IMG/VR virus record: IMGVR_UViG_3300031625_000826
DNA length: 10,570 bases
Strand: one strand, 5' to 3'
Origin: a virus
The notes beneath the pieces are model-generated. The model worked only from the letters and a program-made list of their open reading frames with translations, had not been told where the DNA came from and did not search any database. The translations under genes were made by a program, and so were the position numbers. Positions 2,346 through 10,435 of this stretch are shown here, piece by piece (the first letter of the stretch is position 1; the number at the start of each line of letters is the position of its first letter).

Positions 2346-2373
2346 ATTTTACGAAAAAAAAGCTTAAAGTAAA
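2346..2373 (-). promoter_or_regulatory. Sigma70-like promoter, copy B: -35 TTTACT (2373-2368), 16-nt spacer, -10 TAAAAT (2351-2346). The predicted TSS falls at or on the ARH ATG (2339), implying a leaderless transcript.
   Basis: This is the third copy of the motif TTTAC(T/A)-N16-TA(C/A)AAT. The 3' end of its spacer is TTTTTTTTCG, against AAAATTTTCG in copies A and C. Only 6 nt (AGCAGC) separate the -10 from the ATG, and the ARH start has no SD. The -35 lies immediately after the HNH stop codon. Confidence 0.45.
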
Positions 2374-2374
2374 A

Positions 2375-2833
2375 TCACTTTTTGGATTTTACTTTCTTTT
2401 TTGCCGCCTTTATTCTCACTGGCTTCTTCTTGGCAACAACTTTTTTTGGTTTTGGTTCAAACTTGTCAATTTTCTTTTGAAGATCAAGACTCATCATGTA
2501 TGCAGTCTCTTTAGACGAACCAATTAGTCTATAGAGAGTTTCAGGTGCAAATTCGATATTAGCCGCATGAGGCACTTCCGCCTTCAAGTGGCACTCAGGA
2601 CATAACGACACACCATTGCTTTTCACGTATCCGCCAGCAGGCATTTCATCTCTTGTTGTGATGTGATGAGCATCAAGCTCGCACAATACTGCTCCAGAAG
2701 CTTCCTGTTTGGCTACTTCTTGCAGATCGTTGTGATCATATCCCTGCCGCCCACAACATCTACATTTGTGTTGATCACGGGCAAAAACTGCACCACGGAA
2801 TTCTTTTCTCATTGTCTTCTTAAAATTACTCAT
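2375..2833 (-). CDS. HNH endonuclease with a C-terminal lysine-rich (histone-H1-like) tail, 152 aa.
   Basis: A CRCCG Cys cluster is followed by the HNH core DAHHITTRDEMPAGGYVKSNGVSLCPECHLKAE (His-His...Asn...His with a CxxC zinc ligand). The C-terminus is KPKKVVAKKKPVRIKAAKKKVKSKK. Its start overlaps the OCD stop (TAATG). Confidence 0.85.
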   Translation of the reverse strand: MSNFKKTMRKEFRGAVFARDQHKCRCCGRQGYDHNDLQEVAKQEASGAVLCELDAHHITTRDEMPAGGYVKSNGVSLCPECHLKAEVPHAANIEFAPETLYRLIGSSKETAYMMSLDLQKKIDKFEPKPKKVVAKKKPVRIKAAKKKVKSKK

Positions 2834-3825
2834 TATTGCTCCTTTAACTTTTCGTAAATGTAGTTTGCTACCGCTATGTCTTGAATCGCTAAGCCTGTTG
2901 AATCAAACAAAGTGATTTGATTTTCTCTTGTTCTGCCAAGGCACTCAGCCAAGTTGCAAAAAGTTTTGCCTGACCTTTTTCCCCAAGGCATACAAGCCAT
3001 TTTTCCGCTATTGCTTGAAGGTGGGTGATAAGCGTGCTGGGTTTCTCCTGAATGAACAGCTTGTTCAAAGTCGTCAACCACCCAAATGTCAACTGCCTTA
3101 TATGTTTGAGAATCAAATTCTCTTTTGCCTTCTGCGTCTGCTCCCATTGCGTTAATGTGAACGCCTTTTTTGAGCCATTTTGCTTTCACTATTGGAGCAG
3201 TAGACGGAGTCAATGTTGTCACAATGTCTGCTCCGTCAACACATTCTTCTATGGACTTACATGCTTTTGATCCGTGCCAAAGTTCTGGCCTGTTATTTAA
3301 ATGAAACTTTCCTTCATTAGCAGAGCACATAAGATCACAAACTTCAGTATTTAGATCGAAAAAACGAACTTCAGCTATGCTGGGTCTAACGCTACAGATT
3401 GCATCTACGTGTAGTTGGGTTTGTGCTCCACAACCAATAAACGCTGCGATTTGTCCTTTACGGGGAATTCCATCGATGTTAGACAATAAATTTGTAGCAA
3501 CTCCGGCAGCCGCCGCCGTTCTTAATTTTGTGATATGAGTTGCTTCAAGGATTGCTAAAAGCTCACCCGTTGTAGCTGAATTCAAAATGATGGTGGCCAG
3601 CACAGTTGGCAAATTTTGCTGAGAATTTTCAGGAAAAACGCTGACCCATTTGACGCCAGCGACATCTCCTATGCGGACGGGCATGGCTCGGAAATCGCCA
3701 CTGGGGCAATCAATGTAAGTTTTGGAAACTGTCGAAGTATCTGTAGACTGAAATGCTTCGCCCACGATATCAATTACTTCAGACAGGTTAGTCGCCTGTT
3801 CGCATTGTAAATCTGTGATTATCAT
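2833..3825 (-). CDS. Ornithine cyclodeaminase / mu-crystallin family NAD(P)-dependent enzyme, 330 aa.
   Basis: The family hallmarks are present: LRTAAAAG, the Rossmann motif IGCGAQ, DIVTTLTPS, HINAMGADAEGKREFD, and the C-terminal ITLFDSTGLAIQDIAVANYIYEK. This is compared from memory with Pseudomonas ornithine cyclodeaminase. The ATGA overlap means the upstream gene's stop overlaps this start. Confidence 0.85.
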   Translation of the reverse strand: MIITDLQCEQATNLSEVIDIVGEAFQSTDTSTVSKTYIDCPSGDFRAMPVRIGDVAGVKWVSVFPENSQQNLPTVLATIILNSATTGELLAILEATHITKLRTAAAAGVATNLLSNIDGIPRKGQIAAFIGCGAQTQLHVDAICSVRPSIAEVRFFDLNTEVCDLMCSANEGKFHLNNRPELWHGSKACKSIEECVDGADIVTTLTPSTAPIVKAKWLKKGVHINAMGADAEGKREFDSQTYKAVDIWVVDDFEQAVHSGETQHAYHPPSSNSGKMACMPWGKRSGKTFCNLAECLGRTRENQITLFDSTGLAIQDIAVANYIYEKLKEQ

Positions 3826-4130
3826 CTTGGGGCTTTCTGTCCTTGGGCTGTATTTGCCACATCTCGCAACACATCATCGTAGCATTCAAATTCGGCTTTG
3901 TCTTCATCAAACTTGGGTTCTAACTGGTATTCATAGCAATCTTTGCGATGTTCTTTAGATATGACCCAAAACAGATGACGACATTCCCAACAGTCGACGC
4001 CATCGATGTCATATTTTGCGTCACCTGAGAACCAATTTGGTGCTTCGCAGAAAGGACACCAAATTTTGTGCCAAGTTGATAAAGATGGCTCCCAATTGGG
4101 ATCATCCAAATAGCTATTTTTAAGGCTCAT
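3822..4130 (-). CDS. Small Cys4 zinc-ribbon protein (about 102 aa from the ATG at 4130). The track ORF extends to 4238, but that start would overlap the upstream gene by 119 nt.
   Basis: It carries CPFC...CWEC pairs in WHKIWCPFCEAPNWFSGDAKYDIDGVDCWECRHLF. The 4130 start has GGAAAA 1 nt upstream and overlaps the preceding stop by 11 nt. Alternative starts lie at 4142 and 4166. Its stop is the ATGA junction with OCD. Confidence 0.55.
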   Translation of the reverse strand: MSLKNSYLDDPNWEPSLSTWHKIWCPFCEAPNWFSGDAKYDIDGVDCWECRHLFWVISKEHRKDCYEYQLEPKFDEDKAEFECYDDVLRDVANTAQGQKAPR

Positions 4131-4449
4131 ATTTTCCAACATATTCTTCAAACAAGAGTGTTTCATTGTATCGATAAGACACTGTGTCTTCTTCGTGATC
4201 GAAATCTTCAGGAAGCTGATCCAGTTCGTAGATTGCAACTCTAGTTCCCTGCTTGGGTGTTCTGTTAAAGAATACGTTAAGAACCTTTAGTCCAAGTTTT
4301 CCTTTTTCAACTGAACCATCTTCCTCTAACTCGATCCACCATAATTTAGGAGGAGTTTCAATTTCGGCTATAACCTCATCCTCAAGACCATCGCCCGGCC
4401 CGCCAAAGAACTCTGCATCGAATCCCCAGCCATTACCACCTTCCATCAT
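4120..4449 (-). CDS. Hypothetical acidic protein, 109 aa.
   Basis: It is a clean ORF whose start lies in an ATGATGA junction with the FkbM stop, consistent with translational coupling. The sequence is Asp/Glu-rich and matches no family I recognise. Confidence 0.65.
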   Translation of the reverse strand: MMEGGNGWGFDAEFFGGPGDGLEDEVIAEIETPPKLWWIELEEDGSVEKGKLGLKVLNVFFNRTPKQGTRVAIYELDQLPEDFDHEEDTVSYRYNETLLFEEYVGKYEP

Positions 4450-9710: not shown

Positions 9711-9877
9711 GACTAGCTTTCTTTATGTGTTTAACGCAAGCAGGCAGCCCTCTTGCAAGAAGACTGCCCGTTATTTGTTCTTCGGGTGACCACGCCACTG
9801 TCACTTCTCTCAGCATAGAAAGCCGAGTGTTCTATTGCGGCTTAAACTACCGCTTCCCAAATGCTCACGTATCAAAG

Positions 9878-9981
9878 TACCCCTAGCAAGACTCGAACTT
9901 GCACGCCCGAAGGCACTGGTTCCTAATTATGAGGTTGCTTAACCTCTAGACCAGCGTGTCTACCAATTCCACCATAAGGGC
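9878..9981 (-). tRNA. Class-II tRNA-Leu-like gene (104 nt) with a 22-nt insertion in the anticodon loop (candidate intron). Removing the insertion restores the loop CUUAGGA, anticodon UAG. No CCA is encoded.
   Basis: Acceptor stem GCCCTTA/TAGGGGT. D-arm GTG-GAATTGGTAGA-CAC, a Leu-type D-loop. Anticodon stem CTGGT/ACCAG, enclosing 29 nt rather than 7. Variable arm T-GCC-TTCG-GGC-GT. T-arm GCAAG-TTCGAGT-CTTGC. Discriminator A73. Inside the insertion, GAGGTT pairs with AACCTC. The gene starts 5 nt after the stop of the upstream CDS. Confidence 0.55.
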
Positions 9982-9986
9982 ATAAA

Positions 9987-10364
9987 CTATTTTCCAATCG
10001 ACTCTATACTTGTCACGAAGTATGTAGTCTTACCTTTCCAACTTTGAACCCCTCTTTGCTGGCGATAATGAACTTTCACTCGCAAACCAGAATCCATCGC
10101 ATCTTCAACCTGTTTCAAGATGCCAGTACCGTCTTGAGATTCGTTAACGCTAAACGCCCACGTCTCAACTGTTGCACCTTGCTGAAGCTCACCTTCATGA
10201 GTGTCCCATTCCCCAAATCCGCCCTTTTCGGAGAATTTGATGACAATGCCAGCACGACTTCCTGTCGAATAAGTCCATCCATCAGCAGTGAACCAAAGGT
10301 ACATTCCGCCGCTGAATAGTCCCACAGCAACAACAATCATAGCAATGTGCTTGGCTTTCATCAA
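9987..10364 (-). CDS. Small exported or membrane-anchored protein with an N-terminal signal peptide, 125 aa.
   Basis: MMKAKHIAMIVVAVGLFSGGMYLWFTADGW has the form of a positively charged n-region followed by a hydrophobic core. A purine-rich GGAAAGAAAG RBS precedes the start, and promoter copy C lies 44 nt upstream. Confidence 0.7.
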   Translation of the reverse strand: MMKAKHIAMIVVAVGLFSGGMYLWFTADGWTYSTGSRAGIVIKFSEKGGFGEWDTHEGELQQGATVETWAFSVNESQDGTGILKQVEDAMDSGLRVKVHYRQQRGVQSWKGKTTYFVTSIESIGK

Positions 10365-10407
10365 TCTTTCTTTCCGTTAAGTGACCTAGAATTTTTATGT
10401 TTGTCCT

Positions 10408-10435
10408 ATTGTACGAAAATTTTGGTGAATGTAAA
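10408..10435 (-). promoter_or_regulatory. Sigma70-like promoter, copy C: -35 TTTACA (10435-10430), 16-nt spacer, -10 TACAAT (10413-10408).
   Basis: It has the same architecture as copies A and B. It lies immediately downstream of a terminator-like hairpin plus U-run, and the ATG of the first gene of the block lies 44 nt 3' of the -10 hexamer. Confidence 0.5.

Follow-up and report, generated by a model that had tools for sequence, protein, structure and literature searches.

We analysed a 10,570-nt stretch of viral DNA (IMG/VR record IMGVR_UViG_3300031625_000826, referred to below at its full length as the window), in which three near-identical repeats precede genes of the minus strand. Judging from their sequence, we consider it likely that these repeats are promoters of the sigma-70 family (-35/-10 type) belonging to an uncultured marine large phage, and that they are most likely read by the primary sigma factor of its host. 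In the mechanism that we propose, the phage lineage would carry many near-identical copies of one optimised promoter composed of an A-rich UP-like stretch, the block (R)T-TTTACW-TT, a 16-nt spacer ending in TTTT-CG, the hexamer TAMAAT and a G-rich discriminator. This promoter would be bound by the host RNA polymerase carrying its primary sigma, and transcription would start at a purine 7 nt past the -10 box.

The motif in the window and in related marine contigs

A pattern scan of the window for TTTACW-N16-TAMAAT gave exactly three matches, at 10408-10435 (copy A), 8069-8096 (copy B) and 2346-2373 (copy C), all on the minus strand. The original prediction had claimed three copies at just these positions, and this claim is borne out: the chance expectation for the pattern is 0.01 matches, and none of 200 shuffles reaches three. 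The -35 box is TTTACA in copy A (10435-10430) and TTTACT in copies B (8096-8091) and C (2373-2368), and the -10 box is TACAAT in copies A (10413-10408) and B (8074-8069) and TAAAAT in copy C (2351-2346). On the minus strand, the complete sequences are TTTACATTCACCAAAATTTTCGTACAAT for copy A (10435-10408), with a 16-nt spacer ending in TTTTCG, TTTACTTTCTCAAAAATTTTCGTACAAT for copy B (8096-8069) and TTTACTTTAAGCTTTTTTTTCGTAAAAT for copy C (2373-2346). The spacer end AAAATTTTCG is found in the copies at 10408-10435 and 8069-8096; the variant TTTTTTTTCG, which the original prediction had given to the second copy if its listing order is followed, belongs to the third (2346-2373).

A longer consensus, TTTACWTT-N8-TTTTCGTAMAAT with up to three mismatches tolerated, recovers the same three sites in the window and no others. 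With a weight matrix built from 40 related sites, copies A, B and C score 42.3, 42.5 and 40.4 bits, and the rest of the window does not exceed 0 bits. A generic sigma-70 scan of the window gave 16 promoter-like sites against 17.0 ± 4.2 in shuffles, i.e., no excess, and ranked copy A as the best of them with 10 of 12 hexamer positions. The significance resides in the extended motif and not in generic sigma-70 resemblance. All long open reading frames (ORFs) of the window belong to the minus strand, and the three copies are co-oriented with them and lie in short gaps before start codons. Each copy stands upstream of a gene, as had been claimed, the ATGs following the -10 boxes of copies A, B and C after 46 nt (10361), 51 nt (8017) and 6 nt (2339), respectively.

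The strict 28-nt pattern, scanned over 241 million metagenome records, was found in 94 stretches. About 40 of these originate from a handful of marine samples, have a GC content of 39-49% (55% in L102) and carry the motif in an intergenic position with an ORF downstream; they comprise the window's lineage and relatives that are about 70-85% identical in DNA. The remaining stretches (human gut, termite gut and others) contain scattered single matches, many of them within ORFs. In the search of bacterial genomes, matches in Leptolinea were rejected as a promoter family because they lie within a conserved coding region, and those in Oceanobacillus, Pedobacter and Rhodoferax because they represent a single conserved site per genome. 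The marine family includes 32 distinct sites under the strict pattern and 41 under a relaxed one, in contigs of about 240 kb in total, which overlap and therefore amount to a smaller unique length.

The motif search in these related contigs, which had been proposed together with the original prediction, agrees with a position upstream of genes: 36 of the 41 sites look intergenic, compared with 41% of random positions by the same crude measure. An ORF begins downstream within about 270 nt in 39 of 41 sites (in most of them within 131 nt), the other two being cut by contig ends, and all of the approximately 40 copies are co-oriented with the downstream gene. The genes concerned are non-structural or of unknown function and include those for the major vault protein (MVP; also in the relative L028), an NAD ligase, a LAGLIDADG endonuclease, phosphoesterases, the glycine-cleavage H protein and large serine recombinases. 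This set would fit an early or a middle timing class, without proving either.

Throughout the roughly 40 family sites TTTAC and TTTTCG-TAnAAT are kept, with a spacer of 16 nt, or of 17 nt in one case. In 13 matched site pairs between relatives, the 20 core positions are 97% identical, a value partly built in by the retrieval of the contigs, as compared with 62% in the central spacer, 66% in the upstream flank and 50% downstream. Unbiased evidence is provided by extra sites in the same contigs, by a coupling test and by the positions that were not selected for. TCGTAnAAT taken alone occurs as 44 unique words in about 240 kb, and TTTAC is located exactly 16 nt upstream of 37 of them and 17 nt upstream of one. 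All 43 matches to TTTAC-N17-TAnnAT represent family sites or their reverse-strand reading, with TTTTCG in every one, and TTTTCG also occurs in sites that fail the strict pattern elsewhere. The -10 hexamer is TACAAT (20 of 32 strict sites) or TAAAAT, each with 5 of 6 positions of TATAAT, which itself is found in a few family sites.

Among the unselected positions, TTTAC is preceded by T in 22 of 32 sites and by G in 4 (copy A included), and one position farther upstream there is a purine in 31 of 32. The stretch at about -44 to -39 is A-rich (A in 13-19 of 32 sites), many of its bases doubling as the 3' end of the upstream gene. Past the -10 box, G occupies the first, second and third base in 29, 20 and 20 of 39 sites, respectively, and a purine is present at 7 nt in 35 of 39. 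Across offsets 0-30 past the -10 box, ATG has a sharp peak at offset 6 (8 of 39 sites, P about 2e-6), and seven of these eight ATGs open real ORFs, including the ADP-ribosylglycohydrolase gene behind copy C and its counterpart in a relative. In promoter terms, the A-rich flank matches an UP-like element, the G-rich bases a GGG-type discriminator and the purine at 7 nt a purine start site. The original prediction had assumed a transcription start 6-8 nt past the -10 box, and the phasing of purine and ATG backs this predicted position indirectly.

Reading of the promoters and competing explanations

With respect to TTGACA, TTTACA has 5 and TTTACT 4 of 6 positions; the window copies retain 9-10 of the 12 hexamer positions, and their 16-nt spacer is within the allowed 16-18 nt. 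Reading by the host primary sigma is favoured because the hexamers and the flanking elements are canonical. Canonical sigma-70/sigma-A promoters share with the present sites the hexamers, the spacer of 16-18 nt, the purine at 7 nt and the G-rich discriminator, and the difference is that cellular promoters are degenerate, whereas the present copies are near-identical over about 20 positions. By analogy, such near-identical repetition would be the usual phage practice for promoters meant to out-compete those of the host.

Early promoters of T4, which are read by the unmodified host polymerase, have GTTTAC at -36 to -31, an A-rich stretch at -40 to -44 and extra consensus positions, and they lie before early genes, novel ORFs and tRNA genes (PMC1524935, PMC2988021). 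They demonstrate that host-read phage promoters can be conserved beyond the hexamers (PMC2988021). The T4-type early class is the closest analogue of the present sites, which are no members of it. Both classes are represented by many near-identical copies per phage genome located 5' of non-structural genes, novel ORFs and tRNA genes; both have a -35 box based on TTTAC rather than TTGACA, an A-rich -40 to -44 stretch, conservation beyond the hexamers and, at some copies, an upstream terminator. They differ in the base before TTTAC (mostly T here, G in T4), and the present class has TTTT-CG instead of TGn, a fixed 16-nt spacer and a leaderless subset. Moreover, there is no sign of a T4-like phage here, no T4 core genes turned up in the contigs examined, and the host is probably no proteobacterium. 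The T4 middle class is likewise phage-specific and has a sigma-70-type -10 box; its MotA box, (a/t)(a/t)(a/t)TGCTTtA, is centred at -30, 12 ± 1 bp from the -10 box (PMC2988021). Membership of this MotA/AsiA-dependent class was rejected, since no copy has a MotA box and a good -35 is present.

The original prediction had taken the conservation beyond the hexamers to imply a dedicated transcription class. One half of this claim stands: the promoters form a discrete and highly uniform class, with enrichment upstream of genes extending beyond the window to about 40 copies in related contigs. The other half, a dedicated machinery or phage factor, is not established, every element being compatible with the host primary-sigma holoenzyme. 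We regard it as unlikely that TTTT-CG, the fixed 16-nt spacer and RT before TTTAC are the specificity determinants of a phage-specified factor. TTTTCG does occur in every site, even where the search did not require it, and the spacer length is almost invariant; these features are nevertheless combined with near-consensus sigma-70 hexamers, an UP-like A-tract and a GGG-like discriminator, and the -35 box is not replaced, unlike in MotA-dependent promoters. The extended -10 element TGn is absent, all family sites reading TCG-TAMAAT (T-15 C-14 G-13), and the CG at -14/-13 thus differs from the known element in a manner that a special factor could account for. To our knowledge, an invariant CG at these positions is no described sigma-70 promoter element.

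Among 185,579 bacterial species representatives, strict matches never exceed one per genome, which suggests that the motif is no common host promoter; however, host promoters are far more degenerate than the phage copies, and their absence from host genomes proves little. In L050 and L083 the motif is accompanied by a different repeated motif at other genes, so more than one promoter class may be in use in the lineage. On the other hand, no sigma-like gene turned up in about 240 kb, which is weak evidence given the partial coverage of the genome. A tblastn search of the family contigs with an approximate query for regions 2-4 of E. coli RpoD gave one weak match only, which was rejected as a sigma factor because it is an intein-containing helicase. 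When 94 further ORFs were compared with Pfam, 66 families were matched, and the 25 of them that were listed include neither a sigma nor an RNA polymerase family. We find it quite unlikely, too, that TTTT-CG, the 16-nt spacing and a partial dyad form a code recognised by a sigma or sigma-remodelling factor which a temperate huge phage of marine Planctomycetota specifies itself. If true, this code would serve leaderless and leadered messages alike and would sit beside the second promoter class (about 24 nt) of L050 and L083; no transcription signal of Planctomycetota phages would have been defined before it.

The partial dyad raises the question of an operator. With TAAAAT as the -10 box, the motif forms the inverted repeat ATTTTAC-N16-GTAAAAT, the reverse strand of such sites reading TTTACG-N16-TAAAAT, and one can suggest that the conserved block serves mainly to bind a dimeric phage regulator. 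The enrichment of RT before TTTAC would agree with this, as would the copy that precedes a putative serine-recombinase gene, a gene type that is usually regulated, at the presumed boundary of an integrated element. The symmetry, however, is trivial, as TTTAC is the reverse complement of GTAAA, and it is broken by the TACAAT of 20 of 32 strict sites. The half-sites are 23 bp apart from centre to centre, which makes no integral number of helical turns, and such spacing is unusual for dimeric regulators. In addition, symmetry leaves the purine and ATG phasing past the -10 box unexplained. We consider this explanation very improbable, and the dyad was rejected as the main function of the motif on account of the prevailing TACAAT sites and the downstream phasing.

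Still less credit can be given to the view that the repeats are primarily recombination or mobility sequences which bound gene cassettes like the PeSLs (promoter early stem-loops) of T4-type phages and are not kept for transcription. This view draws on the observation that homology between relatives often starts or stops 0-2 nt from the motif edges (at least six loci). However, such homology ends can be expected in any case where a conserved motif stands beside a fast-evolving leader, and at copy A a weaker homology resumes 27 nt downstream. In L097, a 1.65-kb extra cassette relative to L071 is located exactly at the 5' edge of the motif, and at copy A and a few others a terminator is placed directly upstream, as in PeSLs (PMC2839356, PMC4122927). 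Such an upstream stem-loop terminator is found in only 6 of 41 family sites (copy A present, copies B and C without it), compared with 3% of random positions. The terminator-promoter architecture was therefore rejected as the general layout, 35 of 41 sites having no stem-loop and directly following the preceding stop codon. In sum, the likeness to PeSLs is represented by copy A, where a stem-loop terminator and a promoter within 10 nt form a pair conserved in relatives, and by some insertion/deletion breakpoints at the motif edge; the difference is that most of the present copies have no stem-loop. The downstream phasing signals point to transcription, and a role in recombination, which is possible as a secondary one, would supplement promoter function and not replace it. 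The L097 cassette itself (2001-3654, as against position 2279 of L071, where it is missing) consists of a 458-aa ORF and a terminator with tandem caaaaggcacctatt repeats.

Several points weigh against promoters read by the host primary sigma. Promoter function is deduced here from sequence alone. The bases C-14 and G-13 and the T-run correspond to no known sigma-70 contacts, and a lineage-specific sigma or co-factor could explain them better. The contigs cover only a part of the genome, and they were fetched by the motif itself, so the invariance of the strict sites and a part of the core identity are built in. Finally, the literature searched offered no promoter consensus for Planctomycetota, and this host itself is not certain. 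With these points taken into account, host-read sigma-70-type promoters are still the explanation that we prefer.

Predicted transcription units of the window

Transcription from copy A is predicted to start at A 10401, which would give a 40-nt leader up to the ATG at 10361. Strain variants have single-nucleotide polymorphisms and an indel in this leader with the motif unchanged, and in the relatives L049 and L028 the 20 core positions are kept while the spacer and the leader have diverged. A terminator-like hairpin with a U-run (10446-10476, minus strand; 12-pair stem, -17.6 kcal/mol, z = -4.6) lies 10 nt upstream of the promoter, and this terminator-promoter pair is kept in L049, L028 and L064. 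A 59-aa ORF that spans copy A (10282-10461) was set aside as probably spurious, given the indel in strain variants and its report by the gene caller of one contig only.

The unit started by copy A would begin with a membrane-protein gene and a tRNA-like gene, followed by genes for a 194-aa protein, an exonuclease and a 144-aa protein. The first of them (9987-10361, minus strand) encodes a predicted membrane protein of 124 aa, which belongs to no Pfam family and is annotated as a gene in contigs L004-L009; the exonuclease is RNase T-like according to Pfam (8506-9081, minus strand). The tRNA-Leu-like gene (9878-9981, minus strand) was detected with Rfam (tRNA, 42 bits), unlike with ARAGORN, which reported no tRNA in the window. 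It is of class II and has an extra hairpin in the anticodon loop, where 27 nt replace 5 positions of the Rfam model; manual reading gives a 22-nt insert, AGAGGTTAAGCAACCTCATAAT, the excision of which would leave the loop CU-UAG-GA. Copies of 104-106 nt are present in the about 80% identical relative L049, at 1012-1115 and 3850-3955. Directly after the tRNA-like gene we observed a hairpin with a poor U-run (9738-9770, minus strand; 13 pairs, -21.3 kcal/mol, z = -4.1), which could be a processing site or a weak terminator within unit A. Since there is no strong terminator before copy B, read-through of unit A into the MVP gene is likely.

Copy B lies in a gap of 97 nt that separates a stop codon at 8115 from the ATG of the MVP-like gene at 8017. 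Its predicted start, G 8062, would leave a 45-nt leader, where the Shine-Dalgarno sequence GGAGTGAGCAGG precedes this ATG. The gene (5372-8017, minus strand) encodes a protein of 881 aa, as counted from the ATG behind a GGAG-type ribosome-binding site, with the Pfam matches MVP_shoulder (5.2e-24) and Vault_3 (5.6e-10). MVP relatives of about 40% identity were found only in uncultured huge phages (462-735 kb) and in one 222-kb IMG/VR contig, L002. The diverged relative L028 likewise has a motif copy (4961) before its MVP gene, and no such motif is located upstream of the MVP gene in L002, which indicates that the motif is specific to the window's lineage. Behind the gene there is a strong intrinsic terminator (5316-5349, minus strand) with a 15-pair stem including 8 GC pairs and a U-run (-27.5 kcal/mol, z = -8.2). 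Copy B would launch the MVP message, to be ended by this terminator at 5349-5316. Comparison of L010 (JGI 3300055291) with the window at about 8000-5400 revealed an anchor offset shift of 2376 nt inside the MVP gene, which points to a large deletion within the gene, present in a variant or produced by assembly.

The partition of the block into at least three transcription units, with the MVP gene as one of them, had also been proposed originally. This holds for the MVP gene, which copy B and the terminator at 5316-5349 bracket alone; for the rest the partition may be incomplete, as no strong terminator separates units A and B and the genes at 5288-2375 have no promoter of this class. The latter block consists of five genes and includes those for an FkbM methyltransferase (4446-5288), an ornithine cyclodeaminase (2833-3825) and an HNH protein (2375-2833), all assigned by Pfam and located on the minus strand. 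Neither a motif copy nor a degenerate copy or recognisable promoter was found in it with the position weight matrix and the sigma-70 scan. The methyltransferase ATG (5288) is 27 nt past the MVP terminator, and the interval 5289-5315 contains no Shine-Dalgarno sequence or recognisable promoter. Probably, the five genes depend on terminator read-through or on an unseen signal.

Copy C occupies the 35-nt gap between the HNH stop codon (2375) and the ATG (2339) of an ADP-ribosylglycohydrolase gene (1332-2339, minus strand; Pfam ADP_ribosyl_GH, 1.7e-48, match from residue 11). The A of this ATG (2339-2337) is the seventh nucleotide past the last base of the -10 box, six nucleotides intervening. An in-frame TAA is located four codons upstream of the ATG and there is no Shine-Dalgarno sequence; in the relative L073, the motif and the 6-nt distance to the ATG are kept, the six intervening bases differ and the N-terminus of the protein is conserved from the ATG. 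These features taken together make the start of the gene certain, and as its ATG coincides with the predicted start base, a leaderless mRNA is predicted. Copy C would thus start a message having the A of the ATG as its first base, with an RNase P-like RNA farther downstream in the same unit.

This RNA-like sequence of 227 nt (823-1049, minus strand) matches Rfam RNaseP_bact_b at 49.8 bits (E = 2.5e-11), which is below the gathering score of 97, and spans the whole model with large deletions. The core motifs GAGGAAAGUC, AGAUAAAUG and ACAAAAC..GCUUAC are kept, and the specificity domain is largely missing (17 nt stand in place of 155 model positions). The comparison covers near-identical copies only. 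It would be unusual for a phage to carry a miniature RNase P RNA beside a tRNA-rich region.

A fourth copy of the same layout as copies A-C, copy D (TTTACATTCGATCAATTTTTCGTACAAT), is situated 49 nt beyond position 1 of the window (L001 9728-9755); the six bases GGCACC separate it from the ATG of a cytidylyltransferase-like gene. It would start a leaderless message of this gene and of nucleotide-metabolism genes. Although copy D is leaderless, its counterpart in L018 carries a Shine-Dalgarno sequence, so matching sites can switch the mode. Leaderless geometry is predicted in seven family sites (copy C, copy D and five more); other copies of the class would precede ordinary messages with leaders of 17-73 nt and GGAG-type ribosome-binding sites. 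Leaderless mRNAs are known from the lambda PRM promoter for cI and are common in Actinobacteria and Deinococcus. The seven sites resemble such promoters in having the ATG at the predicted start base and no Shine-Dalgarno sequence, and differ in that the same class would also drive leadered messages.

Lineage, host and meaning of the promoter family

A megablast search with the whole window found no match among 50,697 phage records, and exact-protein look-ups identified near-identical metagenome contigs (L001, L004-L011), which extend the region on both sides. The strict motif has a single match in IMG/VR (L003), without a sign of relatedness, so the lineage appears to be absent from that collection. 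The related contigs contain genes typical of large phages: a tRNA array, an NAD-dependent ligase, a class II aminoacyl-tRNA synthetase, PhoH and RNA ligase. A family A DNA polymerase and an intein Hint domain are each listed for the family contigs, not tied to one protein. As for individual loci, a helicase interrupted by a LAGLIDADG intein was noticed in L047 (4998-7517, minus strand), and in L072 (7077-7844) a promoter copy stands directly before the gene of a free-standing LAGLIDADG endonuclease. An array of at least eight tRNA genes is located upstream of the window region in the same genome (L006 54-2432); farther upstream, the promoter recurs as a variant with a 17-nt spacer (L005 712) and once more at L080 71.

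Besides the promoter motif, L050 contains 12 plus-strand copies of a second repeated motif, TAATyTGTcCCyCyGyACCTTATAgg, which is also present in L015 (the same region) and in five copies in L083. It stands 30-50 nt upstream of nearly every ORF in L050, L015 and L083, and one variant is located 11 nt downstream of a studied promoter copy; it is absent from the window and all other loci. Its layout may loosely recall promoters of single-subunit (T7-like) polymerases. Ten L050 proteins reached no curated Pfam cut-off, except for a zinc ribbon (PF01396) in one.

Two motif-bearing contigs are binned in metagenome-assembled genomes (MAGs) of Planctomycetota. One of them, L112 (= L102, 55% GC), carries bacterial genes for an aminoacyl-tRNA synthetase fragment, a Ser/Thr kinase, an extracytoplasmic function (ECF) sigma factor of PF07638 and ribosome recycling factor. 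In its region 5050-5877, a comM-like gene is truncated after residue 220; about 45 nt farther on, the motif and a ribosome-binding site precede a protein that begins at the contig end. The beginning of this protein, MKIAYSYIRFST, presumably represents the N-terminus of a serine recombinase. The arrangement in L112 resembles a junction left by the integration of an element into comM; this does not prove the identity of the element with the phage of the window. In L141 (a Pirellulales MAG), the motif precedes a gene for a 682-aa large serine recombinase. The same promoter and leader are found upstream of a long ORF in L085 and L095, and the L085 site, related to that of L141, precedes what is probably a gene for a 682-aa serine recombinase. 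These data weakly suggest a Planctomycetota host and, possibly, a temperate lifestyle. Planctomycetes are reported to have few genes with Shine-Dalgarno sequences and to show signs of initiation that is leaderless or dependent on S1 (PMC5397173), and the leaderless subset of the promoters would be compatible with this.

The motif is a well-supported but ordinary feature, as phages commonly carry families of near-identical host-type promoters. Its value is that of a precise and easily searched marker of transcription units in an uncultured marine large-phage lineage whose cargo is unusual in that it comprises a vault-protein homologue, an RNase P-like RNA, an array of tRNA genes and a tRNA-like gene with an insert in the anticodon loop. 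It predicts start sites to the base and leaderless translation of several genes, and it may provide strong promoter parts for Planctomycetota, the probable host group, about whose promoter rules little is known. The copy at the comM edge in a Planctomycetota contig gives a handle for linking phage and host. The RNase P-like RNA, the tRNA with the anticodon-loop insert and the second repeated motif may merit more attention than the promoter motif itself.

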